Source: an uncultured bacterium
GTDB taxonomy: Bacteria; Hydrothermota; UBA3073; NMUJ01; CBEVQO01
Assembly (NCBI GenBank): GCA_965552055.1
Contig: CBEVQO010000004.1
Span: 169,833-233,832 of the forward strand
DNA: 64,000 nucleotides
Direction of reading: 5' to 3'
Shown here: positions 3,034-62,630 of the stretch, in pieces
Numbering within the stretch: position 1 is the stretch's first letter
Layout of the letters: the number at the start of each line of letters is the position of its first letter
Program-made: the position numbers and the translations under genes
The notes under the pieces: generated by a model
What the model was told of the DNA's origin: nothing
Databases searched by the model: none
What the model saw: only the letters and a program-made list of their open reading frames with translations

Positions 3034-3060
3034 TTGACAATTTTAATTTTCATTTAAAAT
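3034..3060 (+). promoter_or_regulatory. sigma70-type promoter TTGACA-N15-TAAAAT, leaderless to ATG 3066
   Basis: TTGACA 3034-3039, TAAAAT 3055-3060, ATG 5 nt later, no SD. Confidence 0.65.
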
Positions 3061-3065
3061 AAATT

Positions 3066-4019
3066 ATGAAAATCTCTATTCCAAAGGGCTTACTTTACTA
3101 TAAATATTTCCCGATGTGGAAAGTATTTTTTGAAGAACTTGGATTTGATGTGATGACATCAAGGGATACATCCAAGAAGATTATGGAAAGCGGACTTAAA
3201 ATAGCGAACGATGAATTATGTTTGCCTGTAAAGATATTTCACGGTCATGTTGCAGATGTTAAAGATAAATCGGATTATATTTTTATTCCAAGGATTATAA
3301 ATATGCGAAAAGGAAAAAATTTTTTCACATGTCCCAAGCTGATGGGCTTACCCGATATGATAAAGGGATGTTTTGATGATATTTCTCACAGATTGCTTGA
3401 GCCCGATATAAATTTGGCAAAAGAACCGCTTGAAAAAACTTTTATAAAACTGGGGAAGAAATTGGGGGAAAAAGAAAAAGCAAAGAAAGCGATTAAGAGG
3501 GCAATGAAAGCACAAAAAGATTTCGAAAAATTACTGGAAAAGGGATACATGTTCGAAGAAGCGCTCAATATTTTATTCAAAGGAGAAAAAGTTAAAAGAA
3601 GGGAAAGAAGATTTAAAAAGAGGGTAGGTATAATCGGGCATTCTTATATTGTGTTTGATAAATTTTTGAATTTAAATTTATTTGAAAAACTTGAGAAACT
3701 CGAAGTCGATTACATTACAATGTATAATTTGCCTTTTTCTTTTCTTGATTTTGAGGATGATTATTGGAATGTTGCATGGATTTACGAAAGAGAAATCATA
3801 GGAGCTGTGAAATATTTTATTGAAAAAGAGAAAGTTGATGGTATTATTTATCTTTTAAGTTTTGGTTGTGGCACAGCGATAGTCGTTCGTGAGATTATAA
3901 TGAGGGATGTTATAAAGGGCGCAAATATACCTTTTTTGCCGCTTATACTCGATGAGCATACAGGAGAGGCAGGTTTTATGACGCGTCTGGAATCTTTTTG
4001 TGATATACTCAAAAAATGA
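3066..4019 (+). CDS. Acyl-CoA dehydratase activase-related protein (DUF2229 family)
   Basis: IPKGLLYY, ELCLPVKIFHGHV, CPKLMGLPD, SFGCG, LDEHTGEAGFMTRLESF motifs. Confidence 0.8.
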   Translation: MKISIPKGLLYYKYFPMWKVFFEELGFDVMTSRDTSKKIMESGLKIANDELCLPVKIFHGHVADVKDKSDYIFIPRIINMRKGKNFFTCPKLMGLPDMIKGCFDDISHRLLEPDINLAKEPLEKTFIKLGKKLGEKEKAKKAIKRAMKAQKDFEKLLEKGYMFEEALNILFKGEKVKRRERRFKKRVGIIGHSYIVFDKFLNLNLFEKLEKLEVDYITMYNLPFSFLDFEDDYWNVAWIYEREIIGAVKYFIEKEKVDGIIYLLSFGCGTAIVVREIIMRDVIKGANIPFLPLILDEHTGEAGFMTRLESFCDILKK

Positions 4020-5119
4020 GGGTAGCTTTTCCACATATGGGCAATCTATATATTCCTTTGACTTCGCTTCTTGAAAATCTGGGCTGTGAAGTAAAATTAC
4101 CCCCTAGACCTTCTCGCAAAAGCATAGAACTTGGGGTAAAATATTCACCTGAATGGATGTGCTTTCCATACAAGGCGAATCTCGGTGATTTAATACTTGC
4201 TCTTCAAAATGGTGCGGATACTCTTTTATCGGTAAAAGGTGATTGGGCTTGTAGATTCGGGTATTACGGAAGATTGCATCATAAGACATTGAGAGATATG
4301 GGGTTTAAGTTCGAAAGTATAATAATAGGTAAAAATAGTGTGATGTATGTGATAAACAAAGTCAAAAAGTTAAAAAAAGGAAGTTTAACAAAAACGATTC
4401 TCCACATGATAAGGGGTTTCTGGATGTGCTGGAAGAAATCGAAACTTGTGGATTTAACGGAGAGATTAGCGAGAAAATATCGCCCGTATGCAAAAAACAA
4501 AAAGGATGTGGAGAGGGTTCTGAATAAATGTTTAAGATGGATATATAAAGAGAAGACCTTATCAGGGCTTGATCGTTTGAGAAAGAAAATAATTAAGGAG
4601 TTCGAAAAGATAGAATGTGACTGGGGGAAAGAGGTTTTAAAGGTTAAGCTGGTTGGTGAAACTTATATCGTCATAGAGCCTGCTGTTAATTTTGATATAG
4701 AGCGTCGTTTGGGTGAAATGGGGGTATATGTTGAGCCATTTTTAACGATACATAAGTGGATATGGCATCCTTTTCACATTGGTCTTGGTGGTAGGCGTGG
4801 TGAGCGTGCTGCACGCAGAGTTGCCAGAAAATACCTGAAACATTGTATAGGAGGAGAAGAACAGTTATCCATAGGGTATACGATATTTGCTGCGAAAGAC
4901 GGATTTGATGGCGTTATACATTTGTATCCTTTTACCTGCATGACAGAAAATGTTGCAAAAGAAATCTTGCCAAAACTCCAGAAGGAATATAATATACCTG
5001 TGATGAGTATCACGATCGACGAGCATACGGGTGAGGCTGGTTTTATATCAAGGATAGAAGCTTTTGTTGACCTTTTAAAAGCAAGGAGGAAAAATGCGAA
5101 TACTGGTAGCAGATGCTGA
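4016..5119 (+). CDS. 2-hydroxyacyl-CoA dehydratase-like / CoA protein activase-associated protein
   Basis: FPHMGN, SPEWMCFPYK, CRFGYYG, PFTCM, DEHTGEAGFISRIEAFVD motifs; the usual partner of DUF2229. Confidence 0.8.
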   Translation: MRVAFPHMGNLYIPLTSLLENLGCEVKLPPRPSRKSIELGVKYSPEWMCFPYKANLGDLILALQNGADTLLSVKGDWACRFGYYGRLHHKTLRDMGFKFESIIIGKNSVMYVINKVKKLKKGSLTKTILHMIRGFWMCWKKSKLVDLTERLARKYRPYAKNKKDVERVLNKCLRWIYKEKTLSGLDRLRKKIIKEFEKIECDWGKEVLKVKLVGETYIVIEPAVNFDIERRLGEMGVYVEPFLTIHKWIWHPFHIGLGGRRGERAARRVARKYLKHCIGGEEQLSIGYTIFAAKDGFDGVIHLYPFTCMTENVAKEILPKLQKEYNIPVMSITIDEHTGEAGFISRIEAFVDLLKARRKNANTGSRC

Positions 5120-6731
5120 CCATTTTACACTAAAGCAGATGAAAAAAATATTAACAGAAGAAGGATATGATGTAGAAACTGTTACAACTGGCGAAGAGGC
5201 AATAGAAATGATAAAAAAGGGTGAATTCGAACTGATAATCCTTGGTGTGTTGCTCGGCGATGACATGGATGGTTTTACAGTGCTAAGGGAGATAAGGAAA
5301 ACTTTGAAGAAGGAAATACCTGTTATGGCGATTGGAAGAAGGGACCAGGGAGAAGAGCTTAATGATATGCGAAGTGTCGGTGCAAAAGAGTTTATGTTCA
5401 AACCAATAGATGAAAAAACACTCCTCCAGAGGATAAAAAAATTGGTAGGAACAGTGGAAAAGAAAGTAGAAGCGAAAAAATATGATGAAATAGTGAAAAA
5501 AGCCAGAGAATATCTGGAAGAAGAAATAAAAACAGGAACAGAGATAATTGTAAAAGTAACAGAGGATGAGTTGATAGCTTATGGATACATTAAACAAATA
5601 GGAAATAAGTTTGAAATTACAGTGGAAGACCTTAAAAGAGCACTGGAAGAAAAGGGCGTAATTCTTATAGATGAGGATATTTTGAAAGATATAGTTGAGA
5701 AAAGGAGGGTGAACGAACCTTTGATATTCGCAAAGGCAATATTGCCCGAAATTGCAGAAAGTGCAGTTGAGTTTCGTTTTGATATTAAAAAAGAAGGCTT
5801 TGAATTTGAAAAAGTAAAAGCAGGGACAGTTCTTTGCAAACATATTACGCGTGGAGAAGTAAAAGCAGGTAGAACTGTAAGGGGTAAAGTATTAACTGCT
5901 CCTGCACCCCATATGGCTGCCATGCCTCAGCCCGGCGAAAATGTATATTATAGTGAAAAGAAAGGTGAATTGATAGCAGAAGTAGATGGCGAAATTTATT
6001 ATGATGGCAAAAAGATAAATGTTTTTCCGATAGAAGAAATAGCACAGGATTTAAAGCCATCAATGGGTGAAGTGACATCAGAAGGCACTTTGCATTTAAA
6101 AGGCAACATACATGCGAATGTGAGAATAAAAGCTAAAGGTAGTGTTTTGTGCAATGGCTGTTGTGATGCAGCAGAGATAAAGGCAGGTGGTAAAGTTTTT
6201 ATTCAGGGCGGATTTTTCGGAAGAGGAAAGGGCAAAATAGAAAGTAACGGCGATGTATTTGTCTCAAAAGCAGAAAATGCCGAAATAAAAAGCAAAGGAA
6301 ATCTTTATTGCAGTGAAAAACTGGAAGAATGTAGAATCGCAGTTGAAGGAAAAGTGCAAATTGAAGATGGTATGATAATCGGTGGCGTAATAAAAGCAGC
6401 GGAAATTATCGCAAAAAATATAGGAACACCTTTTGAAACACCAACAGAAATAATATTGACAGGAAAAGGTATATTAACAGAAATTGAAGAAGCTTTAAAC
6501 GAATTAAAGAAAGAGAAAAAGCCCGAATTAAGGGGAATACAGACACATCTCGAGAATATAAAATCGAAGCTTTCGCAAAAAATGCCTTGTCGAATTGTAT
6601 GTAAGGGAAATCTTTATCCCGGTGTAGTCATAAAATATTTTGGAGAAGAGTTAAAAGTAGATAATGTCTTGACAAATTGTGAAATTAAGGTAGAAGAAGG
6701 CAGGTTAAAAATTGTAAAGGGGGCAAAATGA
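5094..6731 (+). CDS. Degenerate receiver domain fused to a FapA/DUF342 domain
   Basis: N-terminal REC fold (RILVAD...FKP) with the phosphoacceptor Asp replaced. C-terminal GRTVRGK, AEVDG, GGFFGRGKG, IIGG, YPGVVI motifs of DUF342. Confidence 0.75.
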   Translation: MRILVADADHFTLKQMKKILTEEGYDVETVTTGEEAIEMIKKGEFELIILGVLLGDDMDGFTVLREIRKTLKKEIPVMAIGRRDQGEELNDMRSVGAKEFMFKPIDEKTLLQRIKKLVGTVEKKVEAKKYDEIVKKAREYLEEEIKTGTEIIVKVTEDELIAYGYIKQIGNKFEITVEDLKRALEEKGVILIDEDILKDIVEKRRVNEPLIFAKAILPEIAESAVEFRFDIKKEGFEFEKVKAGTVLCKHITRGEVKAGRTVRGKVLTAPAPHMAAMPQPGENVYYSEKKGELIAEVDGEIYYDGKKINVFPIEEIAQDLKPSMGEVTSEGTLHLKGNIHANVRIKAKGSVLCNGCCDAAEIKAGGKVFIQGGFFGRGKGKIESNGDVFVSKAENAEIKSKGNLYCSEKLEECRIAVEGKVQIEDGMIIGGVIKAAEIIAKNIGTPFETPTEIILTGKGILTEIEEALNELKKEKKPELRGIQTHLENIKSKLSQKMPCRIVCKGNLYPGVVIKYFGEELKVDNVLTNCEIKVEEGRLKIVKGAK

Positions 6732-8158: not shown

Positions 8159-8167
8159 GGAGGAGAG

Positions 8168-9484: not shown

Positions 9485-9485
9485 A

Positions 9486-12381: not shown

Positions 12382-12382
12382 G

Positions 12383-14485: not shown

Positions 14486-14546
14486 AAATTTTAACACAAA
14501 TTTCAAAATTTTAACATGTACCATTAAAAATTTTTTCATTTTACCC

Positions 14547-14573
14547 TTGACAAAAAAACGAGTATATTAAAAT
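14547..14573 (+). promoter_or_regulatory. Promoter TTGACA-N15-TAAAAT
   Basis: TTGACA 14547-52, TAAAAT 14568-73, then a G-rich SD and ATG 14587. Confidence 0.65.
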
Positions 14574-14586
14574 AAAAAGGGGGGAT

Positions 14587-16989: not shown

Positions 16990-16992
16990 AAC

Positions 16993-17100: not shown

Positions 17101-17149
17101 ACCTCTAAAATAAATTATTGACTTTTTAATTTTTTGCATAAATTAAAAG

Positions 17150-17533: not shown

Positions 17534-17556
17534 AAAGAGTCCAAGGGAGGTGGTTT

Positions 17557-17736: not shown

Positions 17737-18805
17737 TTTAGGGAAAAATTTTTGTGGCTTTGACCCCTATGATGGTATTTTTTGTGATTTGGGTTGCAAA
17801 ATTTTGCGTCAAATCTCGCAACAGACAATCAAATTATCACCCATAAATTTCAGGAAAGCACTTTTAATAAAAGAAAAAGTACATCCAAAAACTCTTGCGC
17901 TATTTTCAATGGGTTTATCAAATCTTTATGAAGTTTTAAAAGAAGAAAAATGTTTGGAACTCGCAGAAAATTTATTGATAAAATTAAAAGATTTAAAATC
18001 AAAGTATTTTCCGGAGTATTGCTGGGGGCATACTTTTGCGTGGCAAACAAGGGAAAAACTTATTCCTGAAAATTATCCAACTGCCGTAAATACCGCTATC
18101 TGTGCATCTGCATTTCTCGATTTTTATAAGCACAAAAGAAAAAAAGATTTTATCGAGATAGCAAAAAGTGCAGGTGATTTTTTGATGAAAAGGTTAAATA
18201 TTAAAGAAGATAGATTTTATTTGAGTTATACTCCCATTGATAGAAATTTCGTTCATAATGCAAATTCTTTATCTGCTGGTTTTTTATGCAAATTGTTTCA
18301 TTATACAGGAGAGCAGGAATATTTGAATTTTGCAGAAAAAGTGTTTGATACACTTATTTTTTATCAAAATTCTGATGGCGGATGGAATTATGGTTTAGCA
18401 CCTTATCAAAGGTGGATTGATGGCTTTCATACTGGTTTTACGCTGTGGGGTCTAAAATGGGCATTGGAATACGGAGGCACTGCGAAATATCAGGAAAATT
18501 TATCAAAGGGATATGTTTTCTACAGGGAAAAATTATTTGAGGCTGATTTCCCAAAATATTATTTGCATAAGTTTTATCCCACTGATTCTCATAATCTTGC
18601 TGTTGCAATCATTATCCTGTGTGAATTTAGGGAGATAAAAACTGCACTTGACATTGCAAGGTGGGTGATAGACAACTTTTATTGTTCATCAGGCTATTTT
18701 TATTTTCGTGATTATGGCTTTTACAGGATAAAAATACATTATCCGAGATGGAGTGATGCATGGCTTTTTTATTCTTTTTCTCTGCTTTTAAAAGAAATTA
18801 TTTGA
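17681..18805 (+). CDS. (alpha/alpha)-barrel protein of polysaccharide loci (GxDPYD family)
   Basis: GFDPYDG, CWG, LSYTP, VHNAN, QNSDGGW, WIDGFHTGF, YPRWSDAW. Confidence 0.7.
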   Translation: MESMQEEIKRLLLKILNFNLGKNFCGFDPYDGIFCDLGCKILRQISQQTIKLSPINFRKALLIKEKVHPKTLALFSMGLSNLYEVLKEEKCLELAENLLIKLKDLKSKYFPEYCWGHTFAWQTREKLIPENYPTAVNTAICASAFLDFYKHKRKKDFIEIAKSAGDFLMKRLNIKEDRFYLSYTPIDRNFVHNANSLSAGFLCKLFHYTGEQEYLNFAEKVFDTLIFYQNSDGGWNYGLAPYQRWIDGFHTGFTLWGLKWALEYGGTAKYQENLSKGYVFYREKLFEADFPKYYLHKFYPTDSHNLAVAIIILCEFREIKTALDIARWVIDNFYCSSGYFYFRDYGFYRIKIHYPRWSDAWLFYSFSLLLKEII

Positions 18806-18828
18806 CATTATGAGGATATGAATATATT
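18802..18828 (+). promoter_or_regulatory. Promoter TTGACA-N15-TATATT for the DUF4190-alaS run
   Basis: TTGACA 18802-07, TATATT 18823-28, SD GGGGGTGA, ATG 18842. Confidence 0.6.
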
Positions 18829-18841
18829 AAGAGGGGGTGAG

Positions 18842-19129: not shown

Positions 19130-19144
19130 TTTTGTCTGTAAGAA

Positions 19145-27510: not shown

Positions 27511-27566
27511 ACCCTCACCTCCTAATCTCTTAAAATAATGAAATATGGTTTTCGTCAAGTAAAAAT

Positions 27567-28440: not shown

Positions 28441-29646
28441 TTAATATATCTCTTTTTTGGTTTTGTCAATTCTTTTTACCTCTCCTGCTTTTTTAATTGC
28501 CCATTTTGTGAGTATGGGACCTACGAATTCCGTTACTATTGTTGTCCCAAGTGCTATTGCTATTATTGTATCTCCAACCTGTGGAAATTCTTTTGCTGCG
28601 TAAAGGCATAGACCTATTGCTATCCCTGCCTGTGAAAATAATCCAAAGCCCGTGTATTTGCGAAGAACAGCAGGCGCTTTTCCAATAACTGCACCAAAAA
28701 ATGCACCAAAGATTTTACCGCTGAATCTACAAAGTAAGTAAACAAGAGCAACGAGACCCAGTTTCATCAACAGATGAATATTCAGGCGCGCACCAGCAAG
28801 CACAAAATAAATTACATAAAAGGGAAGTGAGAAATTTTCAAAAACAGTGAAAACAGTTCCCCTGCGTACAGAATAATTTGAGACTATAAATCCGAGCATC
28901 ATTGCACATAAAAGAGGAGAAAAGCGAATACCCCATGGTTTAGTCTGCAATAAGCCAGAAAACAACATTATGGTGCCGATTGTGACAACAAGAACATTTA
29001 ATGGGTCTTTTACTTTTCTTAAAATAAAAAGAAGTAAAATCCCGGAGAGCCATCCTGTAAAAAGCGAGAAGAATATCCCCGCTATAATTTTTAATAGTAA
29101 AATTCCGAAAGATATTTTCAATTTATCAAAAGCAATATGTGCGATTGATGCAGAAATCGAATAGAGCATGAGACCTATTGCGTCATCCATACCGACGCAG
29201 GCAAGGAGAGTTTGGGTTAAAGGACCTGATGCCCTGTATTCCGCGAGCACCATAACGGTTACTGCAGGAGCAGTTGCGCAGCCAATAGCCGCAATTAAAA
29301 GCGAAAGCGGTAAAGATAAATGGAGCAAAAACATACCAATAAAGAGGAATAAAAATGTAAATAATGTCTCAAAAATTATTATTAAAATTAAAGGTTTACC
29401 AAGTCTTTTAAAAGTCGAAATCTTCAATTCCATTCCGACATTGAATGCAACAAGCAAAAGAGCGAATTCAATGAGCCATGTTAATTCAAGGTTCAATTCA
29501 AGTGGAATTAATTTTAAGAAAGATACACCAAAAGCAAGTCCAATTAGAATATATCCCGTTACCGTTGGAAATTTTAATTTAGAAATAAATTTGCCAGCGA
29601 AAAATCCAAAGAATAATATTATACCTATTGCAAGAATTTCACTCAT
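28441..29646 (-). CDS. Cation:proton antiporter (CPA family)
   Basis: Multi-TM; PTVTGY, ATAPA, GMDD, SQAGIAIGL. Confidence 0.9.
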   Translation of the reverse strand: MSEILAIGIILFFGFFAGKFISKLKFPTVTGYILIGLAFGVSFLKLIPLELNLELTWLIEFALLLVAFNVGMELKISTFKRLGKPLILIIIFETLFTFLFLFIGMFLLHLSLPLSLLIAAIGCATAPAVTVMVLAEYRASGPLTQTLLACVGMDDAIGLMLYSISASIAHIAFDKLKISFGILLLKIIAGIFFSLFTGWLSGILLLFILRKVKDPLNVLVVTIGTIMLFSGLLQTKPWGIRFSPLLCAMMLGFIVSNYSVRRGTVFTVFENFSLPFYVIYFVLAGARLNIHLLMKLGLVALVYLLCRFSGKIFGAFFGAVIGKAPAVLRKYTGFGLFSQAGIAIGLCLYAAKEFPQVGDTIIAIALGTTIVTEFVGPILTKWAIKKAGEVKRIDKTKKEIY

Positions 29647-31188: not shown

Positions 31189-31251
31189 TACAAAATGATA
31201 ATCATTTTGCTGATATGTCAAGGGATAAATTTTATAAATTCAAAAAAATGC

Positions 31252-31278
31252 TTGACATCTTCTTATTGTCTATAAACT
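31252..31278 (+). promoter_or_regulatory. Promoter TTGACA-N15-TAAACT for kbl, divergent from a minus-strand TTGACA-N15-TATCAT (31221-31195)
   Basis: Counted spacers are 15 nt on both strands. Confidence 0.6.
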
Positions 31279-35881: not shown

Positions 35882-35972
35882 ACATATTATAACCAGAAAT
35901 AAAATTTTGTCAAGATTTTTTCATCATGATGCACAAAAAATTAAATTATTCGTACATTGCGATGTACAAATA

Positions 35973-36578: not shown

Positions 36579-36664
36579 AATTATTTTTAAAAATTTGACA
36601 GGATTGTCAATAAAAATATTGACAGATTGATTGTGTGATTAACATAATAAAAATGGGGTTTGAA

Positions 36665-44938: not shown

Positions 44939-44990
44939 CTTCCCCCTCAATATTTTAATCTGTTCCTTAATTTGTCAATTATTTTTTGAC

Positions 44991-45017
44991 TTGACAAATT
45001 AAAATTTTCAATATAAT
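44991..45017 (+). promoter_or_regulatory. tRNA promoter, perfect TTGACA-N15-TATAAT (divergent buk promoter TTGACA-N15-TAAAAT at 44978-44952)
   Basis: TTGACA 44991-96, TATAAT 45012-17; the mature tRNA begins 8 nt later. Confidence 0.75.
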
Positions 45018-45025
45018 AAATGAGT

Positions 45026-45109
45026 GCCGAGGTGGCGGAATTGGTAGACGCACCAGTTTGAGGGACTGGGGCCCGTATGGGCGTGCAGGTTCGAGTCCTG
45101 TCCTCGGCA
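45026..45109 (+). tRNA. tRNA-Leu(GAG), CCA not encoded
   Basis: Acceptor GCCGAGG/CCTCGGC+A, D-arm GCGGAATTGGTAGACGC, anticodon arm CCAGT-TTGAGGG-ACTGG, long variable arm, T-loop TTCGAGT; followed by CTC. Confidence 0.97.
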
Positions 45110-45384
45110 CTCCATTTTTATTCCTTACTTAAAAACCAATATAAACCAAAAGTCCCAATGGGATCAGCAATTGATATTTCCTTTCTGTGAAAATTTATTT
45201 CCAATAAAAAAGCCAAAGGTATCTCTGATAGCATGGTAAGGTTTTAATTTTAATTTATTTGAGATTTTTCCCTTACAGTGTCTCCCTTTGCTTCTTTTAC
45301 TGCCAATAAAAATACAAACACAAGCATACTCCCCCTTACTCATATTAACCCTATTTTAAAAATGTCAATATAAAAAATTTTATT

Positions 45385-45480
45385 ACGAGCGAAGCGAGTG
45401 CATTACCAATGGGTTGTGAGCCAACACCCCGACTGAAAGGAGGGGTGTGCACGAGGGCGGTGGGGACAGGGAGGCGGGGC
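45385..45480. repeat. GC-rich palindromic intergenic element (REP/MITE-like)
   Basis: CGAGCGAAGCGAG; hairpin CACCCC-GACTGAAAGGA-GGGGTG (45425-45447); outer GTGCA/TGCAC pairing; sharp GC contrast with flanks. Confidence 0.45.
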
Positions 45481-45522
45481 TAAAAATATTTGACAAAACA
45501 ATTATTCGATTAAAATTATTGA

Positions 45523-51339: not shown

Positions 51340-51360
51340 TTAAATTTTGCATTAAAAAGC

Positions 51361-51387
51361 TTGACAGACTTTTATTTTGATTATAAT
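51361..51387 (+). promoter_or_regulatory. Perfect TTGACA-N15-TATAAT promoter of the insert
   Basis: TTGACA 51361-66, TATAAT 51382-87. Confidence 0.7.
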
Positions 51388-51465
51388 AGGATGATGAGGG
51401 AGTTTTTAATTTGGGTTAATGTAATTAGGGAGAGGGGGACACATTTTAAAAGCATAAGAGATTTT

Positions 51466-51490
51466 ATCCTATCCTATCCTATCCTATCCT
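51466..51490 (+). repeat. (ATCCT)5 microsatellite
   Basis: Five exact tandem copies. Confidence 0.9.
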
Positions 51491-51647
51491 TGGTACTTTA
51501 GTGAAGGCGTTCCCTAGAGGCGTAAATTCATTTAGTGAGCCCCGACCCCTTTAGGGGATAGGGGACGGGCGCCATCCCGACCCGAATGGGGCAGGGCAGG
51601 TGAATGGGGTTTGTTCTTTGAGAGGTTAAAATTTTTAAAAGGAGGGT

Positions 51648-52229
51648 ATGATGTTAAGGAAGATAAGTCTTTTGGCAATTATCATAGTTTTTCCTTTGTT
51701 TGGAGAAGTAACTACGGAAATGACTACAATAGAAGTGAAAACAGACGAAGATTGGAAAGCTATAATTCAGCAACATCCTGAATGGGTGGCGCTTAAGAAC
51801 CCCGGTAAAGTTTATTTTGTAGAAATCATATTAAAAAATATTGATAAACTTGCGTTTGATTCAGAAGGTCACCGTAGAGCTTATTTAAATAAACTTAAAG
51901 CAGTTATAGCTACAGCTAAAACTCAAAATTGGCAAGGAGTAATTCAAAAGATTGAGAACGATCTTATACCACATGCAAAATCTTGGTTAACAAAAGAAAA
52001 TCATATAATTGCAGTAGAACTTTTACTTAAATTACAAAAGTTAACTTACGAAAAGCGGGCTACTACTTTATATGTTTGTGAAAGTTGTATAGAAGAGCTC
52101 TTTTCAAGAATGCTTGAAGAAGAACTTACGTGTAAAATAAAAATAAAGTTTTATTTCAAATGCAAATGGACTCAGAAAGGCGGTCTTAGTTGCGAGGTAG
52201 GAATAACAATTGAATGGGAACGGAAGTGA
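51648..52229 (+). CDS. Secreted hypothetical protein: helical body plus Cys-rich cationic beta-hairpin C-terminus
   Basis: SD AGGAGG; signal peptide; all 5 Cys fall in the last ~50 aa. Confidence 0.75.
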   Translation: MMLRKISLLAIIIVFPLFGEVTTEMTTIEVKTDEDWKAIIQQHPEWVALKNPGKVYFVEIILKNIDKLAFDSEGHRRAYLNKLKAVIATAKTQNWQGVIQKIENDLIPHAKSWLTKENHIIAVELLLKLQKLTYEKRATTLYVCESCIEELFSRMLEEELTCKIKIKFYFKCKWTQKGGLSCEVGITIEWERK

Positions 52230-52235
52230 AAAGCC

Positions 52236-53783: not shown

Positions 53784-53797
53784 ATAATAAAATGTGA

Positions 53798-55105
53798 GTG
53801 AAAGTGAATGATATTTGGCTGCTATTTCTTATTATCTACAATAACTTTAAATTCTCCTCACACTCTGATTTTACAAATACTATATTTTCTTATGATGAAA
53901 AAGCTTCTACTATAAATGAATTGAGAAATAAATTTGATGCGATATTAAGATACGATTTTAAAAATATTTCATTGCAAACTAAATTATTTGCTGAATTCAA
54001 ATATGATTTTGATACGCTTATTAATTATAAAATTCCATTTGATTTAATCTTTTGCTATATGCCAAACAAGAATTATTCTATTGGATTGGATTCACGATTC
54101 TATAAGTCTTCGAATGATTCACTAATTAAAATTTATTGGATAAATATGAAATATCGGTACAAAGATAATACAATAAAATTGTCTCAATTGAAATTTCGGG
54201 GTGTCAGAACCACAAGTTGTATTTTTGAAGGTAAAACTTATACCCTTGGTTACGCCCGCAAATTTACAGGTGCAAAAACTTATAAAAGTTTATTTGCTTC
54301 AAAAAGATTTAAAAAATTTACCATAAGGACGAATATTGAATCAAGAACATTTATGTGCGGAGTTTATGCATCTCACAATACCCCGTCAGGGAAAAGGAAG
54401 CTTAAATTTACTTTTACAGGGAATCATAACGAATTTAAATTTTATAAATATTCATCCTGCATAGGTTATGAAACCAGCAAACTAAATCTTGAAATAAACA
54501 CGCAGATTGATTCTCTAAAAGATTGCAATTTAAAATTAAAATCTAATCTAAAAGAGAAGCGTTTCAAAACAGATATTGCATATAGGGGATTTAGAAATTT
54601 TGAATATGGTGGGGTGATTTTTACAATTACGCCGAATGACTGGTTAGAAGCTACTTTTAGGGCTTCTATTACTCGCAGTTTTGATAGGGTCGATTCAATA
54701 GGTGTAGAACTTGGTCATTACTTTGAATCACTATTTTTGAATTATGGAGCAAGTCGAATTATAAAATTTAGCGAAGTAAAGAATATATTTTATGAGAATA
54801 TTGAAAAGGAATTTTATTTCAGCAATATGGGGCTGATTTTTTCTATCATTTTATCACAGGAAATTTGCAAGGAGAAATCATTTATGCATGAAATAAGTAT
54901 TACTTTTTTCCATAAGGATTTATATTTTGGAATAAATTACCAGAATGACATTAGTTCTGGTAGTTATACATGGCATGATGCATATTTCACATTGGGGTAT
55001 AATTTTAAAAAACATAAATTTGAACTTTGTTATTTCATTTCGGGAGAGAAAATTAAACATCCAGAAATGAAAACCTTCTCATTCTCATATTTGCATAAAT
55101 TTTGA
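53798..55105 (+). CDS. Putative outer-membrane beta-barrel hypothetical protein
   Basis: Strand-rich and aromatic-rich; C-terminal FSFSYLHKF; GTG start. Confidence 0.55.
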   Translation: MKVNDIWLLFLIIYNNFKFSSHSDFTNTIFSYDEKASTINELRNKFDAILRYDFKNISLQTKLFAEFKYDFDTLINYKIPFDLIFCYMPNKNYSIGLDSRFYKSSNDSLIKIYWINMKYRYKDNTIKLSQLKFRGVRTTSCIFEGKTYTLGYARKFTGAKTYKSLFASKRFKKFTIRTNIESRTFMCGVYASHNTPSGKRKLKFTFTGNHNEFKFYKYSSCIGYETSKLNLEINTQIDSLKDCNLKLKSNLKEKRFKTDIAYRGFRNFEYGGVIFTITPNDWLEATFRASITRSFDRVDSIGVELGHYFESLFLNYGASRIIKFSEVKNIFYENIEKEFYFSNMGLIFSIILSQEICKEKSFMHEISITFFHKDLYFGINYQNDISSGSYTWHDAYFTLGYNFKKHKFELCYFISGEKIKHPEMKTFSFSYLHKF

Positions 55106-55155
55106 AATTTTTCGGAATTTTACTTGACTACTCTCTAATTTGATTAAAATTTTTA

Positions 55156-56160
55156 ATGGAGGGTAAGATGAGGTTGTGGCATTATGTTGTGATTGCGTTG
55201 TTGGGGACGAGTCTGATGTGTTCTCGTGCGAAGCCTCCTACGAAAGAAGAAACCGAAGAAGAGTTCCTTTCTCAGCCTCAAAGGATATCCGAAGATGTTG
55301 AAAATTCTCTTGCAGGACAGGCACTTGCGGATTTTGCAGAAAAACAAGAAAGTTATAAAGGTAAAGTAAAACTTTTCTCAAAGGAATTCGCACTGAGCTA
55401 CTATAAGATTTTCAGAAAAAGTAAACAGGAGGAGTCTTATGGAACCTACGAATGGGATACCACATTTCATCAATGGGTGCTTGTTGACTCTACTTATCCT
55501 GCTGATGGCTGGCTCTTTAAATGGACATTTACAGATACCGCAGGCAACCCGCATTCAGCTGAATTTCTAATTGATTCTTTAAAATATCAGGTGATAGTTT
55601 ACGATGAGTATCCTGATTCAATACCAACGAGGGCTCATGCTTCTTTAAAAGTGGATAACTCCGAACTCGCCTGGATGTTATTCCATGCACAATATACAAC
55701 AGAAGGAATACCCGAAAAAGCAGACCTTACACTTGAATTAGTAGGCGTAATACAAGTTGGAATGGAGTTAGAACTTTCTGGTGTTACAACTGAAGAAATA
55801 CCCATCGGTAGCGTTCATTTCTGGATGATAGATTATAAACAAAACAATTATCGGATTGATTTAACTATAAAAGGTAATCAGGATTCTTCTATTGACATTA
55901 CACTTGAAGATAATAATGGCTGGAAACTCGTTATGGATATAAGTGCACCCGAGGCAGTTGTAGAAGCGAGTTATGCTGGAAAGAAATGGGAAGTCACAGG
56001 CGAAATCACACGCAAAGGAGCGCATGCTGCGGATATCGAAGGAACTATCTGGGACCCCGATGTGGAACCCGACCATGTATCTGAAATATGGGTTGTCTTT
56101 CCTGACGGGACAAAGAAATCTCTTGAAGATTATTTTAGCTTCCTTGAGGAAGAAGAGTAA
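55156..56160 (+). CDS. Hypothetical lipoprotein
   Basis: Signal with SLMC; acidic beta-rich body; promoter TTGACT-N15-TAAAAT at 55124-55150. Start may be 55168. Confidence 0.7.
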   Translation: MEGKMRLWHYVVIALLGTSLMCSRAKPPTKEETEEEFLSQPQRISEDVENSLAGQALADFAEKQESYKGKVKLFSKEFALSYYKIFRKSKQEESYGTYEWDTTFHQWVLVDSTYPADGWLFKWTFTDTAGNPHSAEFLIDSLKYQVIVYDEYPDSIPTRAHASLKVDNSELAWMLFHAQYTTEGIPEKADLTLELVGVIQVGMELELSGVTTEEIPIGSVHFWMIDYKQNNYRIDLTIKGNQDSSIDITLEDNNGWKLVMDISAPEAVVEASYAGKKWEVTGEITRKGAHAADIEGTIWDPDVEPDHVSEIWVVFPDGTKKSLEDYFSFLEEEE

Positions 56161-57207
56161 TTATAATTTGCGTGATAGTAAAATACTTATCAGACAACAT
56201 ATTGTTGCGAATATCATTGGAGAAAGCGGGAAAATTCCGTAAATCGCACCGCCTATAAGGGGTCCTGCAATGGAGGAAAGGGAAATGGTCGAAAATGTAA
56301 TGCCTGAATATGTAGCCCTCTCATCTGTCCTCTCAAAAATATAGCGTGTAATACCTACGAATAAAAAAGACCAGCTAAAAGCAATCAAAATTTGTGCAAA
56401 AAATAAAAATTTGTAATGTGTTAAAATGCTCCACAATAAAAATCCGCAAAAAGAAAATATAAAGCCAAGTTTAACAGAAAGATCGCTATCAACTCTATCA
56501 ATAAAATTCATTATTATGAACTGAAAGAGCGGATTTATACCTGTTATAAAACTTATCCAGAAGTCATTTGCTCCTTTTGACCTTAAATAAATCGCAAAGA
56601 TAACCCATACCGCTGTTGCACCAAGATGCCTTATGAAAAACGCAAAGAAGAGGTTTAAAAAATTTCTAGGAATCCTTGGAAATAAACCACTTGCTTTTAT
56701 TTGGGGTTGAACATCTCTAACGGGTAAAAAGAAAAATAGAGCCGAAAATAACAAAATTGCGGATGCAAAGAAACACTTTGTTAAATCTTTTATGAAGCCA
56801 AAGAGGAAACTCCCAATAGCCCATCCCAAACTGCCGATGCTTAAAAAAGTACCATATCTAACACCAAGTTCATATCCATAAGCAGTAAAAATCGAAAAGA
56901 AACCACCTGCAAAGAAAGCAAAAATCATCCTTAAAATTGTAAAAGAAATGATGTTTCGAGCTAAACCCTGACAGAATAAAAAAGCCGAAGAAAGAATTAA
57001 TAACACAATAGTTATATTTTTTCTGATTCTGAAAATGTCCGATAATCTACCTGCAAGGTAAGAACCCAGGAAGAAAAATACACCATGTAAACTGACAATG
57101 GCACCTATGGTGGAAGAAGGGGCGCCTATTTCTGAAAGATAAAGAGGGGTTATTAAAAATAAAAGAGCATAAGAACATTCCGATAAAAATTTTGAAAGAT
57201 AAATCAT
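56161..57207 (-). CDS. MFS transporter
   Basis: AGRLSDIFRIRK motif A; about 12 TM segments. Confidence 0.85.
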   Translation of the reverse strand: MIYLSKFLSECSYALLFLITPLYLSEIGAPSSTIGAIVSLHGVFFFLGSYLAGRLSDIFRIRKNITIVLLILSSAFLFCQGLARNIISFTILRMIFAFFAGGFFSIFTAYGYELGVRYGTFLSIGSLGWAIGSFLFGFIKDLTKCFFASAILLFSALFFFLPVRDVQPQIKASGLFPRIPRNFLNLFFAFFIRHLGATAVWVIFAIYLRSKGANDFWISFITGINPLFQFIIMNFIDRVDSDLSVKLGFIFSFCGFLLWSILTHYKFLFFAQILIAFSWSFLFVGITRYIFERTDERATYSGITFSTISLSSIAGPLIGGAIYGIFPLSPMIFATICCLISILLSRKL

Positions 57208-57866
57208 TTAATGAATTTCCATTTTATAAGTGTAAAAATTGCTTTGAAACCATCTTTTACACCGATTTTTTTCCCTTTGCGTCGTGCACTATAAGAAATC
57301 GGCACTTCATAAATTTTATAACCCAATCTGCAAACTTTTGCAGTAATTTCTGGCTCTATGTCAAATCTATTTGCTTCTATTTTTAATTTTTTAAACAATT
57401 GTGTGGGCATCATTTTATAACATGTTTCCATATCGGTAATTTTTGCACCAAATAATAAATTCGTTAAGAAGGTTAAAAATTTGTTCGCTATATAACTTTC
57501 GGGTAAGAATTTTCCTTTGCCTTTAAATCGTGAACCGTAAATAACTTTTGCTTTTTCTTTTTTGGCGATTTCGAACATTTTTATCAAATCTTTGGGATTA
57601 TATTCAAGGTCTGCGTCCTGAATGACAGCATACTCGCCTGTTGTGGCATTTAAACCCGTCTTTATAGCTGCTCCTTTGCCCATATTTTTTTCATGATGCA
57701 AAACTTTTATGCCTTCGATTTTTTTTAGAATTTCATAGGTTTTGTCTTTTGAACAATCATCTATTACTATGATTTCTTTATCAATTGGTAATTTTTTGAC
57801 ATTTTCAATAACCTTCTCGATTGTGCTTTCTTCATTGTAGACAGGTATAAGGATTGATAGTTTCAT
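57204..57866 (-). CDS. GT2, polyprenol-phosphate glycosyltransferase (DPM1-like)
   Basis: IPVYNEE, DDCSKD, GKGAA, QDADLEY, TDMETCYK, FDIEPEITAK. Confidence 0.9.
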   Translation of the reverse strand: MKLSILIPVYNEESTIEKVIENVKKLPIDKEIIVIDDCSKDKTYEILKKIEGIKVLHHEKNMGKGAAIKTGLNATTGEYAVIQDADLEYNPKDLIKMFEIAKKEKAKVIYGSRFKGKGKFLPESYIANKFLTFLTNLLFGAKITDMETCYKMMPTQLFKKLKIEANRFDIEPEITAKVCRLGYKIYEVPISYSARRKGKKIGVKDGFKAIFTLIKWKFIK

Positions 57867-57935
57867 CTTAAAAGATAATCAAGATTACAATTTGTCAATT
57901 CTTTCTTGACATTTTTTGAGATTTAATTAAATTTA

Positions 57936-60900
57936 ATGATGATAATTTATTTGCTTACATTTAGTTTAATATGGCAGAAATTTCTGGATTTCGGTGGTAT
58001 TGATGAGGCACATGATGTAGCGGTGTCTTCCGATGGCTACATTTATGTGATAGGAGAAGACAGGAAAGATGTTATTTTATGTAAATTGACACCTCTTGGG
58101 GATACGGTTTTCACAAAGAGATTTGGCTCATCTGGACAGGATTTTGGTGAAGGGATTGCGATTGATAAGACGGACACTGCGATTATTTCCTGCGGCGGTT
58201 ATAACGGTTACTCTGATATTTTCCTTGCGAGACATAAAAAGGATGGGAGCAATGTTTTTCTCAATACTTATAATCATGGTGCACTTGAAATTGCAGAAGA
58301 TGTTTGTGTTGATGCCAATCGTTATATAGTATTATGTGGATGGGTGACACCAGCTATTCTTCAACAACATAATTTTCTTGTTAAAAAATTAAATCAGGCA
58401 GGTGCAACAATATGGACTAATACTTTCAAGATAATCAATTGCGACTCAAGATTAAGAAGTATTTCATGTGATAATACCGGGAATTATTATTACGCGGTAG
58501 GAAGTGTGTGGGATTCAACTGTTGCTCAATCTGACTGGATAATTTTGAAATTTGATTACAATGGAAACTGTATCGATACTTTGAGATGGGATGGCGGAAG
58601 CGATGATGATGCTTATGGGATTTGTGTTGATAAATCGGGTAAGATTGTAGTTGTCGGTGGAACTGAAATTTCCACCTGGGATATAAAAATAATGCGACTT
58701 TCTGAAAATCTTTCTATTTTATGGGAAAGAACATTTGATAATGGTGGATTTGATTGTGCTTATGGAGTATGTGTAGATGATAACAATAACATTTATATTT
58801 GTGGTGAAACTGAAATCGGGTCAGAAAGACATTTATTTGTCGCAAAATATGATAGTGCAGGAAATTTGCTTGACAATTTAGATATAGATGTGGGAGATAA
58901 AGCAAGGGCTTATGGTGTTGCTTACAAAGACGGAGAAATTTATATTACAGGTTTCAGAGAATTAGCAGGTGATACCGACTGGGTTATAGTTAAACTTTCA
59001 GATTTCACAATTTTAAAATTTACTGCAGATTTCGATGATACAAACAATTTCTATGCAAGAAAGCGCCTTTATACTATTGAAGTTGATTTATTCAATGTTT
59101 CTGGTGGAAATGCAATTGATACTGTGTATCTTGAAATTTTGAAAAATGGAAATGTTATCTTTCGCAGTATTTATAATAGAAAAAGCTCAGACCCTGACTC
59201 TTTTGAAATTTTAACAGGTGCTCAATATGTTATTGATAAGGACTCCTGTTACCATGTGATAACAGGTGATACTTTAAAGTGTTATTTCAGGTACTGGTTT
59301 GACTGGGATTTCCCCGGAGACACAGGACTTATCCTGCGTACTTATGCAGTTGATACAGCAGGACATAGAACAGCAAATTATAACTTATCATGCGATGTAG
59401 ATACTGCCATAAAAATCGATACATTTTATATAAATCCAGAAACAACAAATATAGGGGATACTATTATCTGGTATTACAAAATACTTTATAAACTTTCGCA
59501 AACGATAACGCCACCTGACTCCGAAATAGACACCGCTTTTCTACTTTTAGAAAATTTAGCACTTTGCAGGGATACGGTATTAAGAAAAGTCGTTTCTACG
59601 GATACTACACATGCCGAATATGTGAAAGGTGTTTATATTTATCATCCACAGGTTAAATTATCGCATCAAGGTGGATTTTATGATTTTACACAATTGAAAG
59701 ATACTGTTTATGTTCTTTCGCCGTTTAAAATAATTTCTTTATCTGCAGATTTTGATGATACAAATAATTTTTATGCGAGAAAAAGACTATATACAATAAA
59801 AACACAGGTAACGCATTATTTAGGGGGCGGTGCGATAGATACATTTTACTTGGAGATTATAAAAGGAAATATTATCCTTCGCAGTATTTATAATAGAAAA
59901 AGTAGCGATCCGGATTCTTTTGAAATTTTAGTTGGTTCTCAATATGTTATTGATCAAGATTCTTGCTATCATCTAATATTAGATGATACTTTGAAATGTT
60001 ATTTCAGATATTGGTTTGATTGGGATTTTCCTGGGGATACAGGCATTATATTACGGGTTTGTGCGGTAGATAGCTTCTCGAATCGTAGTAAATGGGATAC
60101 AATATATTGCGATGTAGATACTGCCATAAAAATTGATACATTTTATATGTATCCTGAAAGTGTATTGATACTTGACAAAGTTTACTGGCATTGCGAAATA
60201 CTTTACAGCATGTCAAATTCAATCGCACCTCCTGATTCCGAAATAGATACCTGTTTCTTATTCCTTGAAAACTTATCTTCGAAAAGAGATACAGTTTTGA
60301 GAAAGTCAATCTTTACAGACAGTTTATTTGCTGAGATTTTACCTGGTACTTATATTTATCACCCACAAGTTGTTCTTGCGCATCAAGGTGGATATTTTGA
60401 TTTTGTTCAATTCAAAGATACAATTTATGTCTCTTTAACAAAAGTAAATCCTATCTCTCCGCTTGATTCTTCGGCACTCAATACACCCACACCTCTCTTT
60501 GTATGGCATGTGGTACCTTCTGCAAATTATTACCACTTACAGATAGCAACTGATACTCTTTTTGTAAAATCTTTAATTCTCGATACAGCAGGGATTACAG
60601 ACACCTTTTTTGCATTGAAAGATACTTTGGAGGATGGGATTTATTACTGGCGAGTAAGAGCTTACGATACCCTTGGCAATACCGGTGAATTTTCAAATAA
60701 AGTTATGTTCTGGATAGATACTCATTCACCTGAAATTTTAAAAGTATATTACGATTATTATCAGGATTCTTTACCTAATTCCGTTATTTTCTATGCTATT
60801 GTTCGAGATAACTTTTGTGTAGATTCCGTATGGTTTCACTATCTCCCGGGATGGGAGCAGTGCGATACTTTTAAAATCTTAGAAATGCAATTGGAAGATA

Positions 60901-61277
60901 CGGTGTGGAAAACGCCGCCGATAATTTTTGAAAGCTCTCCTTGTATGATTTATTTTGTTAGAGCAAAGGATAAGGCAAATAATTTTGCATATTCAGATAC
61001 CGGTTTCATCGATGTTACCTTTGAATCTATCACAAAGCCAGAAATAGAGATATATCCTACAATTGTTAGAAATGTTATCAATTTAAAACTTCCAAAGAAT
61101 AAAATTGCACGATTTGAAATTTATGATTTAACTGGAAGAAAAATCAAAGAGTTAAAAATACTTTCCGATGGAAAGGTGCAAAAGGTTAATTTGAAATACT
61201 TACCAGCAGGGATTTATTTTGTTAAGATGAGATGCGAAAATTCAGAAAGAATTTTCAAGATCCTTGTTATAAAATGA
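57936..61277 (+). CDS. Large T9SS-cargo surface protein: beta-propeller, two ~240-aa tandem domains, Ig/FN3-like domains, CTD
   Basis: Propeller repeats; duplicated ADFDDTNNFYARKRLYTI module; YYWRVRAYD; C-terminal IYP...IYDLTGR...LPAGIYFV...KILVIK. Confidence 0.8.
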   Translation: MMIIYLLTFSLIWQKFLDFGGIDEAHDVAVSSDGYIYVIGEDRKDVILCKLTPLGDTVFTKRFGSSGQDFGEGIAIDKTDTAIISCGGYNGYSDIFLARHKKDGSNVFLNTYNHGALEIAEDVCVDANRYIVLCGWVTPAILQQHNFLVKKLNQAGATIWTNTFKIINCDSRLRSISCDNTGNYYYAVGSVWDSTVAQSDWIILKFDYNGNCIDTLRWDGGSDDDAYGICVDKSGKIVVVGGTEISTWDIKIMRLSENLSILWERTFDNGGFDCAYGVCVDDNNNIYICGETEIGSERHLFVAKYDSAGNLLDNLDIDVGDKARAYGVAYKDGEIYITGFRELAGDTDWVIVKLSDFTILKFTADFDDTNNFYARKRLYTIEVDLFNVSGGNAIDTVYLEILKNGNVIFRSIYNRKSSDPDSFEILTGAQYVIDKDSCYHVITGDTLKCYFRYWFDWDFPGDTGLILRTYAVDTAGHRTANYNLSCDVDTAIKIDTFYINPETTNIGDTIIWYYKILYKLSQTITPPDSEIDTAFLLLENLALCRDTVLRKVVSTDTTHAEYVKGVYIYHPQVKLSHQGGFYDFTQLKDTVYVLSPFKIISLSADFDDTNNFYARKRLYTIKTQVTHYLGGGAIDTFYLEIIKGNIILRSIYNRKSSDPDSFEILVGSQYVIDQDSCYHLILDDTLKCYFRYWFDWDFPGDTGIILRVCAVDSFSNRSKWDTIYCDVDTAIKIDTFYMYPESVLILDKVYWHCEILYSMSNSIAPPDSEIDTCFLFLENLSSKRDTVLRKSIFTDSLFAEILPGTYIYHPQVVLAHQGGYFDFVQFKDTIYVSLTKVNPISPLDSSALNTPTPLFVWHVVPSANYYHLQIATDTLFVKSLILDTAGITDTFFALKDTLEDGIYYWRVRAYDTLGNTGEFSNKVMFWIDTHSPEILKVYYDYYQDSLPNSVIFYAIVRDNFCVDSVWFHYLPGWEQCDTFKILEMQLEDTVWKTPPIIFESSPCMIYFVRAKDKANNFAYSDTGFIDVTFESITKPEIEIYPTIVRNVINLKLPKNKIARFEIYDLTGRKIKELKILSDGKVQKVNLKYLPAGIYFVKMRCENSERIFKILVIK

Positions 61278-61286
61278 TGTTTAATC

Positions 61287-62357
61287 TCAACTTTCTAACA
61301 ATTTTTCGAACAGTTCAATAAATTTTCGTGCAATTTTTTCTGCTGACCTTTCTTTTACAAATTTTATCGCATTCTCTCTTATTTTTTTAAATCTTTCTGT
61401 TTCTTCAAAAATATCAATCAAAGCATTTTTCAATTCATCAAAGTTTTTATATTTAAATATTTCGTCTTTAAAGTCTTCTGTAAATCCCGATGAGAGCGCG
61501 ACAATGGGAGTGCCCGAGCCTATGCATTGATAAAGGGTGCTCGATAATACAACCCATCTGGGGGAAGGTTTGTTGAAAATTAGTGCATCAACAGCATGTA
61601 AATAATCGTATAATTCAGAAAGACTGGGTGTTTCTTCTTTTATTATCACATCAATTTTACCCTTTGCTTTCTCAAATCCAGATAATGCTTCTTCATTTTT
61701 GCTCACCAGCAACAAAGTGATAGGATACTTTTTTGAAAGTTCAATATAAACAGGTATTGTTTCAACAGCATATTTTGCAGCGGGACCGAAAAAGAAAAGG
61801 ATTTTTCTGTTAATTGGAAGATTAAATTTTTCTCTCAATTTTATTTTCTCATCTTCAGAAACGAGTTTCAAAGGATGACAGGGGTACGGGATGATATATA
61901 CTCTATCTTTTGGATAAGCGGTTTTGACCCATTTTTCGTATCTTTCGTCAAAACATACGATTGCATCCCAATCAAATTGATAGAAGCGAGGGTCTTTTTT
62001 CAATTCACCGTCATGAATAACAGTTACAGTTTTGGCTTTCCTTTTTATATGCGGATAAAATATTTTAGCGAGAAGGTCATAGGGTAGCATTCCGAGGTCT
62101 TCTGTTACAAAAATTTCATAATCTGTGGTGAGAAAAGGTCGAGCATCGAGGTCAGGCTCTTTATAATTTGAAGTTGTAAAACATCTTATAACATAATCTT
62201 CGTCTTCGCCCACGATCGCAGTACCGTGAAAACTATATCTGTAGAATGTGAAGACAGTAAGATTATGCCCCATTTTAACCCATTCTCTGCCGATAAACTC
62301 TGCATGAATCGAGGCTCCAGAATTTGTATTCCAGGCAGACATCAATCCAATTTTCAT
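61287..62357 (-). CDS. GT-B fold glycosyltransferase (GT4-like, divergent)
   Basis: MKIGLMSAWNT.SG, K.GH.LTV, LFFFG, GTPIV, S.EKIA.KF.EL. Confidence 0.65.
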   Translation of the reverse strand: MKIGLMSAWNTNSGASIHAEFIGREWVKMGHNLTVFTFYRYSFHGTAIVGEDEDYVIRCFTTSNYKEPDLDARPFLTTDYEIFVTEDLGMLPYDLLAKIFYPHIKRKAKTVTVIHDGELKKDPRFYQFDWDAIVCFDERYEKWVKTAYPKDRVYIIPYPCHPLKLVSEDEKIKLREKFNLPINRKILFFFGPAAKYAVETIPVYIELSKKYPITLLLVSKNEEALSGFEKAKGKIDVIIKEETPSLSELYDYLHAVDALIFNKPSPRWVVLSSTLYQCIGSGTPIVALSSGFTEDFKDEIFKYKNFDELKNALIDIFEETERFKKIRENAIKFVKERSAEKIARKFIELFEKLLES

Positions 62358-62601
62358 AGCATTATAATTTAAAGAAAATATCCATTTGTCAACCGAAAAT
62401 TTAATTTTCCACCGATATATAACTGCAAAATCAATTTTTCTTTACGAGAAAGGATTATAATTAAATTAAGGAGGGTATAGTTTTGTCGTTTTTAAGTGGC
62501 GGATTGATACCATTGGAGATACAATATCTGCAAAAGTGGTTTCAAATGAGATTGAATTAAAATGGAAAGACAATTCAAAATATGGAAATAAGAATTTCAG
62601 C

Positions 62602-62630
62602 TTGACAACTTTTTTTTTTTCGATTATAAT
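62602..62630 (+). promoter_or_regulatory. Promoter TTGACA-N17-TATAAT with a T11 tract in the spacer
   Basis: TTGACA 62602-07, T11 62610-20, TATAAT 62625-30. Confidence 0.65.

Follow-up and report, generated by a model that had tools for sequence, protein, structure and literature searches.

A 15-bp spacer between canonical -35 and -10 boxes at the promoters of one small bacterial order

The window, a stretch of 64,000 nucleotides (nt) from an uncultured bacterium of the Hydrothermota (assembly GCA_965552055.1, contig CBEVQO010000004.1, positions 169,833 to 233,832), carries a recurrent intergenic promoter in which the -35 box TTGAC(A/T/G) and the -10 box TAnnnT are separated by 15 base pairs (bp). 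Sites of this pattern with spacers of 15, 16 and 17 nt are termed N15, N16 and N17. The promoters of the window, and the tRNA gene behind one of them, are as follows.

2994..3021, minus strand: N16 promoter, back to back with 3034
3034..3060, plus strand: N15 promoter (TTGACA/TAAAAT); the ATG of a DUF2229 gene lies 5 nt past the -10 box, too close for a Shine-Dalgarno sequence, likely leaderless; Pfam DUF2229 from residue 2
14547..14573, plus strand: N15 promoter, followed by a G-rich ribosome site and an ATG at 14587
17118..17144, plus strand: N15 promoter (TTGACT/TAAATT), ATG 17150 at 5 nt
18802..18828, plus strand: N15 promoter before a DUF4190 gene and alaS
27532..27558, minus strand: N15 promoter (TTGACG/TATTTT) before rpsA (ribosomal protein S1)
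28443..28469, minus strand: N15 promoter that overlaps the final codons of the gene upstream; a PTS IIA gene follows
31195..31221, minus strand: N15 promoter (CBS-domain gene); TGAT stands ahead of the -10 box
31252..31278, plus strand: N15 promoter, divergent partner of 31221, aminotransferase gene
35886..35913, minus strand: N16 promoter (TTGACA/TATAAT)
36619..36645, plus strand: N15 promoter with TGAT
44952..44978, minus strand: N15 promoter, back to back with the tRNA promoter
44991..45017, plus strand: perfect N15 promoter, 8 nt before tRNA-Leu
45026..45110, plus strand: tRNA-Leu(GAG), a housekeeping gene, behind N15 promoter 44991
45342..45368, minus strand: N15 promoter
45490..45516, plus strand: N15 promoter; a PAS-histidine kinase frame opens 6 nt on, at ATG 45523, likely leaderless; PAS fold from residue 4
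51361..51387, plus strand: perfect N15 promoter with TGAT
55124..55150, plus strand: N15 promoter (TTGACT/TAAAAT) with TGAT
57872..57898, minus strand: N15 promoter; a GT2 gene opens 5 nt on, at ATG 57866, likely leaderless
57906..57933, plus strand: N16 promoter, back to back with 57898
62366..62392, minus strand: N15 promoter
62602..62630, plus strand: the one strong N17 site of the window, with an 11-T run in its spacer; three genome copies

All 16 intergenic N15 sites that a preliminary description had listed read TTGAC(A/T/G)-N15-TAnnnT on the strands and at the positions assigned to them, including the two perfect TTGACA-N15-TATAAT sites (44991 and 51361), and its three N16 sites (minus 3021, minus 35913 and plus 57906) are likewise correct; the N17 site that it had left unplaced is the one at plus 62602. 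The list itself is incomplete, as one good N15 site (minus 28469, before the PTS IIA gene) and three sites inside genes were missing from it. In total, TTGAC(A/T/G)-Nx-TAnnnT occurs in the window 20 times at N15, 3 times at N16 and twice at N17. Four back-to-back pairs (3021/3034, 31221/31252, 44978/44991 and 57898/57906) have their -35 boxes 8–31 nt apart and a common A/T-rich upstream stretch.

The same geometry extends over the whole genome (G000; 2.23 Mb in 15 contigs, ~35% G+C). TTGACA-Nx-TAnnnT matches number 416 at N15, 93 at N16 and 106 at N17, the other spacers between 11 and 23 giving 26–95; with TATAAT as the -10 box, the counts are 121, 27 and 7. The genome-wide mode, the value on which the preliminary description had staked its reading, thus falls at 15 and not at 17. 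An N15 match follows 285 of the 485 intergenic TTGACA boxes, compared with a mean of 26.8 (sd 4.9, maximum 42) when TTGACA is kept and the following 30 nt are shuffled 1000 times. N16 matches follow 44 of the 485, just above the shuffle maximum, and N17 matches 62, among which 42 are N15 sites read two bases on and 20 are exclusive. At the N15 -10 positions of 489 intergenic TTGACA boxes, the conserved T, A and T reach frequencies of 0.84, 0.79 and 0.66. The -35 box is strict: an N15 peak exists for TTGACA, TTGACT and, weakly, TTGACG, and for none of 13 other -35 variants genome-wide. Meanwhile, a standard scan with spacers of 16–18 nt over window positions 44000–58500 returns 60 matches against 60.2±7.7 expected, that is, chance level. 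In addition, the strong N17 promoter at 62602–62630, two of whose three genome copies lie on contig C12, carries an 11-T run that could slip, and three repeated groups appear to account for 11 of the 17 genome-wide TTGACA-N17-TAwAAT sites.

The positions of these sites relative to genes bear directly on the register of the two boxes. With simple longest-frame gene calls, 383 of 453 N15 sites stand at the head of a same-strand gene, compared with 12.5% of random positions. When each of 348 divergent gene heads is assigned its first match in the order N15, N16, N17 and N14/18, these classes hold 203, 23, 11 and 5 heads, respectively, and 106 heads have none. Among 47 tRNA and tmRNA genes, 20 have an N15 site within 70 nt, one has only an N17 site and 26, many of them array-internal, have neither. 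A purine is found 5 nt past the -10 box in 87% of 261 sites. Of the ATGs located 5–6 nt past an N15 -10 box, 155 begin an open frame at least 80 codons long and 30 do not, compared with 10 and 38, respectively, of those at 3–4 nt; in three genes of the window, a Pfam domain starts at residue 2–4 counted from the ATG near the -10 box. On the upstream side, C precedes TTGACA in 50% of intergenic sites, as is likewise reported for the -35 box of other bacteria (PMC12641261). The purine and ATG peaks downstream and the C upstream of TTGACA together indicate that both boxes are in their usual register and that the distance itself is shorter, and the start-codon and tRNA positions, taken as proxies for start sites, favour the N15 register. 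Leaderless translation is likely common, judging from the long-frame ATG 5–6 nt past the -10 box at 155 of the 453 N15 sites. At many other N15 sites, a ribosome site starts 7–8 nt past the -10 box.

A misread motif, with the true -10 or -35 box elsewhere, or an artefact of repeats or composition, is another conceivable explanation, and 42 of the 285 intergenic N15 sites do match at N17 too; the earlier statement that an N17 register gives no TAnnnT in the sites checked holds for the listed sites and does not extend to the whole genome. Against such a misreading, 238 of the 285 match at N15 alone, the N15 spacers are unrelated to each other in sequence, and the 13 further -35 variants yield no peak. 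Moreover, the N17 register would leave 3 nt between the -10 box and many start codons. We consider this explanation very improbable.

The -10 box of G000 prefers TAnAAT (261 sites) to TAnnTT (94 sites). A division of the genome's promoters into two classes along this line is rejected, since TAnAAT and TAnnTT sites have in common the C at -36, the G at -15 and the ATG peak. A TG dinucleotide is situated at -16/-15 in 75 of 261 sites, compared with 13 of 261 at -15/-14, which differs from the canonical extended -10 arrangement.

The 15-bp geometry is a genuine feature of the whole genome and is restricted to a small order of four genomes. A phylum survey, in which one promoter pattern was counted at spacers of 15, 16 and 17 across 272 genomes and the tables were read by eye, gives 324/59/28 for G000 and 25/9/2, 25/6/0 and 17/3/2 for G001–G003, the three other genomes of the order (sister genus; 99, 87 and 66% complete). 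No other genome of the 272 has a 15 mode above background: outside the order, the N15 count is at most 29 and is never the mode, except in a few genomes that are all at background (such as G085, 7/2/5). Strict 17-bp spacing marks family f4, which belongs to the same class (G009, 10/13/291), families f17, f38, f31, f33 and f37 are 16-dominant (G035, 7/264/24), and family f3 has a broad spread (G004, 29/39/30). In families f25–f27, f30 and others, few TTGACA-based sites occur at spacers 15–17, and another -35 box or none may be used there. In the case of G001, counted over 595 kb of its 1.4 Mb, TTGACN-Nx-TAnnnT gives 88, 58 and 33 at N15, N16 and N17 over a background of 18–39; its -10 box is T-rich and lacks the TG (60 TAnnTT versus 18 TAnnAT at N15). 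The four N15 genomes cluster on RpoB in a quick tree (Shimodaira–Hasegawa-like approximate likelihood ratio test, 92). They are thus kin and not independent, so the shift to 15 bp counts as one event.

The genome-wide mode of 15 supports the altered spacer ruler that had been proposed for the housekeeping holoenzyme. We infer that this ruler lies in proteins rather than in DNA topology, and a protein-set ruler in some form, whether on the core side, in a short sigma or in each sigma separately, is highly probable from the sequence comparisons. The topological alternative supposes an ordinary holoenzyme on relaxed or overwound DNA, in which 15 bp would give the usual angle between the boxes. 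G000 encodes a reverse gyrase, and its only GyrA has no GyrA-box. A published twist model of the spacer optimum (PMC9303308), computed here, places the optimum at 16.0 bp for relaxed DNA and at 15.1 bp at a superhelical density of +0.06; the model thus needs strong positive supercoiling, and it counts twist only and ignores the shorter distance. Furthermore, G001 and G002 keep an intact GyrA-box and yet have the same 15 mode, and G026 possesses reverse gyrase and gyrase but has a 17 mode (6/4/27). Topology alone is contradicted by these three genomes and, as an explanation, is distinctly improbable; it may contribute to the 15-bp spacing and does not suffice. In G000, gyrA (C1:27241-29584) is unlinked to gyrB (C4:72212-73990), with the reverse gyrase at C4:82901-86113. 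The GyrA-box is kept in four of four relatives checked, and the G000 chromosome may be without a negative-supercoiling activity.

Two sigma factors of G000 come into question as readers of these promoters: a long RpoD (L001), encoded after dnaG, with region 1.1 (PF03979) and the families of regions 1.2, 2, 3 and 4, and a short sigma (L002) of 272 residues without region 1.1. In RpoD, an indel in regions 3–4 had been suggested as a possible sign of the altered ruler, and three one-residue indels (one deletion and two insertions, summing to one residue gained) do occur in regions 3.0–3.2. They are not the general cause: the sister genomes keep N15 without a long RpoD, so one sigma indel does not explain the spacing. 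In an alignment of 37 sequences, RpoD differs at 8 of the 17 conserved positions of regions 2.4–3.0, but at 1 of 11 in region 2.3 and at 1 of 18 in region 4.2. The numbering of E. coli sigma is set by offset from the tryptophan pair, with the E. coli numbers of that anchor and of the zipper arginine taken as given. On this numbering, RpoD carries R441K, V454P, E458N and D445E and keeps R451 and H455. According to PMC4593229, R441, V454 and E458 read the extended -10 element in a solved open complex and are invariant in 1002 primary sigmas, and R451 and H455 with two zipper residues hold the -17/-16 phosphates (for R451, also PMC3130263). Milder changes in region 3.0, namely V454A/S with E458D, are present in three 16-dominant genomes. 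The similarity of region 2.4 to short sigmas (mean 0.42, best 0.63) is comparable to that with long ones (mean 0.44, best 0.53).

For close relatives of this RpoD, a GTDB scan gives four distant loci and a metagenome scan three, one of them identical; among the best 7998 candidates, the nearest proteins are 53% identical over residues 330–575, and the named matches bear WOR-3 and Cloacimonadota labels, among others. From these labels, the phylum is likely WOR-3. The protein appears to contain two tandem region-1.1-like units at its N-terminus (L001:499-2226), and its sigma-finger is without the acidic residues found in relatives. A single-sequence AlphaFold model, with a mean predicted local distance difference test score of 54.5, was not used.

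In the assemblies of G001–G003, a long RpoD is not found; the short sigma and one sigma of extracytoplasmic function (ECF) size are the only ones detected (L042-L045, L083-L088, L096 and L097), and dnaG is followed by another gene in both genomes where dnaG is found. In the ancestor of the order, the short sigma may have taken over as housekeeping factor and may itself measure 15 bp, with RpoD fading in G000 and lost in the sister genus, in parallel with the short primary sigma of Bacteroidota. This explanation is a minority possibility of some weight. It provides a single reader for both genera, and the short sigma is the only group 1/2-like sigma found in G001–G003, all of which have N15. 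The short sigma is at the slow end of its class (1.02–1.05 versus 1.00–1.23) and keeps region 4 intact (1 of 19 departures), while RpoD evolves fast; an unrooted FastTree phylogeny separates it from the long RpoDs and places it towards two Bacteroidales short primary-type sigmas. However, a short sigma exists in most of 40 relatives whatever their spacer, including strict-17 f4 and 16-dominant G035, where there is no separate 15 peak, so its presence as such is ruled out as the explanation. A separate 15-bp class with a T-rich -10 box in two-sigma genomes is not seen either, as TAnATT follows the main mode in G022, G031, G018 and G004. Moreover, a single short-sigma reader fits poorly with the unlike -10 boxes of G000 (TAnAAT, TG) and G001 (TAnnTT, no TG), and in RpoD regions 2.3 and 4.2 are preserved, as is the position of its gene after dnaG. 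The A-rich -10 box of G000 matches that of RpoD-bearing relatives, so these comparisons favour RpoD as the main reader of G000 promoters; the speed-up of RpoD argues the other way.

Alternatively, the ruler may reside in each sigma, with the rewriting of RpoD regions 2.4–3.2 shortening the spacer in G000 and the short sigma of the sister genus arriving at 15 bp on its own. In favour of this, no other aligned relative has these RpoD changes, which cluster on the spacer-facing surface, region 2.4 is as similar to short sigmas as to long ones, and milder region 3.0 changes occur in three 16-dominant genomes. Nevertheless, two separate shifts to 15 bp would be needed in sister lineages, the net gain of one residue is no shortening, and family f15 stays at 16 with similar RpoD changes. 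We regard this explanation as rather improbable.

On the core side, the comparison covered RpoB and the first ~480 residues of RpoC. A core element is reported to affect activity across spacer lengths (bioRxiv 534826), and E42 of the beta' zipper is described as near sigma D445 and R451 (bioRxiv 2023.02.08.523653). The zipper residue is D42 in 5 of 36 aligned genomes, namely all four N15 genomes and strict-16 G035, and the zipper arginine is replaced by lysine in G000 alone. The D42 pattern matches in 56 genomes, of which 3 are off-target and 5 further ones are confirmed as rpoC, the rest, including G199 and G204, being pattern matches only. As a switch, E42D is rejected, being neither necessary for 16 nor sufficient for 15; it is a lead. 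A search for CarD returned only an Mfd-sized match in five of five genomes tested, with 15, 16 and 17 modes alike. In G001–G003, rpoB and rpoC are located on different contigs, with other genes after rpoB (L089-L091 and L151-L154).

Our tentative preference, held with slightly less than even confidence, is that the ancestor of the order had its holoenzyme ruler reset from 16–17 to 15 bp, most likely on the core side and not by one sigma indel. Sigma4 would grip TTGACA and sigma2 would open TAnnnT as usual, but the two would be held ~2 bp closer, and transcription would start 5–6 nt past the -10 box. In G000, the long RpoD would be the main reader, with its regions 2.4–3.0 rewritten to fit the shorter spacer, while in the sister genus the short sigma would do the job on a similarly reset core. 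A fuller version is possible and is put forward more cautiously: the order would have moved a core-set ruler to 15 bp with two different sigmas reading one geometry, a few residues at the beta' zipper, the flap and the sigma 2.4–3.0 junction would set the spacer, the 15-, 16- and 17-bp relatives would form a three-step natural series within one phylum, and one branch would have discarded RpoD.

A series of results weighs against the preferred reading. The indel in the RpoB flap tip that had been considered earlier is absent from all 34 sequences, and no indel exists in the beta flap or in the beta' zipper, zinc domain, clamp helices and dock; residues unique to the order number only four in the part of the core compared. 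Across the phylum, the D42 pattern marks the 16-dominant families f17 and f38, so D42 alone does not give 15; G199 matches the pattern, in a putative rpoC, and yet has the same spacing as the rest of its family, and E stands at zipper position 42 in five 16-dominant genomes checked. RpoD, as the supposed reader, scores 288 and 285 bits against the TIGR02393 cut-off of 354; 18 of 37 matching genomes likewise score under it. Its distance to outgroups is 0.83 compared with 0.53–0.69 in class mates, with RpoB unchanged, and it differs at 6 of the 27 conserved positions of regions 2.1–2.2 too. These features suit a fading sigma no less than a remodelled one. In family f15, RpoD regions 2.4–3.0 are equally altered, and yet the mode is 16. 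Finally, the spacer G of N16 sites is spread across three positions, so that it may or may not be anchored to the -10 box. A second lineage, f15 (L052 in G036 and L053 in G030), combines a strongly altered RpoD, with R451S in G030 and departures in 4.2, with a short sigma that is well conserved, which may reflect a further transfer of duties from one sigma to the other.

Elsewhere in the window, a peptidase C25 protein and a protein with a C-terminal tail of the type IX secretion type are encoded at 38751–42515 and 57936–61277, which fits an organism of the FCB group, and a response-regulator receiver is fused to FapA-like domains at 5094–6731.

The literature describes 17 bp as predominant across 49 species (PMC12641261, whose model favours 17 by construction) and as the mode in all species of PMC8407463, with 6 bp to the start site there; in both, the 17-bp optimum is treated as fixed across bacteria. 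A report of a 15-bp housekeeping spacer mode was not found in the literature covered, outside which most subscription journals lie; the phrase '15-bp spacer' is absent among the matches listed in the search, and no literature joining WOR-3, promoter and sigma factor was found. To our knowledge, work on what sets the 17-bp optimum has relied almost entirely on altered DNA. A lineage that combines textbook boxes with a 15-bp spacer, and has relatives at 16 and 17, offers a complementary route, as swaps of sigma and core could show which surface is the ruler. In practice, standard promoter finders with 16–18 bp spacers miss the promoters of G000, foreign promoters are likely to be read poorly in this organism, and a 15-bp holoenzyme could perhaps be used as a transcription system with partial orthogonality.

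Compared with canonical sigma70/sigmaA promoters (E. coli and B. subtilis), those of G000 have the same TTGACA and TAnnnT boxes (TATAAT best), the C before the -35 box, an A/T tract upstream, a T tract and a G near the -10 box, a purine at the likely start, and use at tRNA and ribosomal-protein genes. They differ in a mode of 15 instead of 17, outside 17±1 bp, in the TG at -16/-15, in a likely start 5–6 nt past the -10 box, in tolerating nearly no -35 mismatch except at the last base, and in an RpoD without three residues that are invariant elsewhere. By these features, N15 promoters would work like sigma70 promoters and yet fall outside the accepted range, which would probably surprise specialists.

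The 16-bp families f17, f38, f31, f33 and f37 likewise combine the same boxes with a family-specific shortened spacer, D42 being common to f17 and f38; the spacer studied here is one base shorter still, limited to one small order and coupled to the remodelling or loss of RpoD. In Bacteroidota/Chlorobi, the reported exception, other boxes and longer spacers are used (TTG-N17-23-TANNTTTG; bioRxiv 172254). Here too, a short sigma without region 1.1 appears able to be the main factor, the sister genus having only this kind together with a T-rich -10 box. Unlike in Bacteroidota/Chlorobi, the boxes are canonical, the spacer is shorter and G000 keeps a long RpoD; TTGAC-N15-TAnnnT, rather than TTG-N17-23-TANNTTTG, is dominant in G000 and G001, although no search aimed at the Bacteroidota motif was made. 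Spacers of 13–16 bp on an ordinary core are otherwise characteristic of sigma28, sigmaB, sigma32 and some ECF sigmas. The N15 promoters resemble those of such alternative sigmas in their short spacer, but the latter have other boxes and small regulons, whereas textbook boxes are found here at ~400 sites, including those of stable RNAs.

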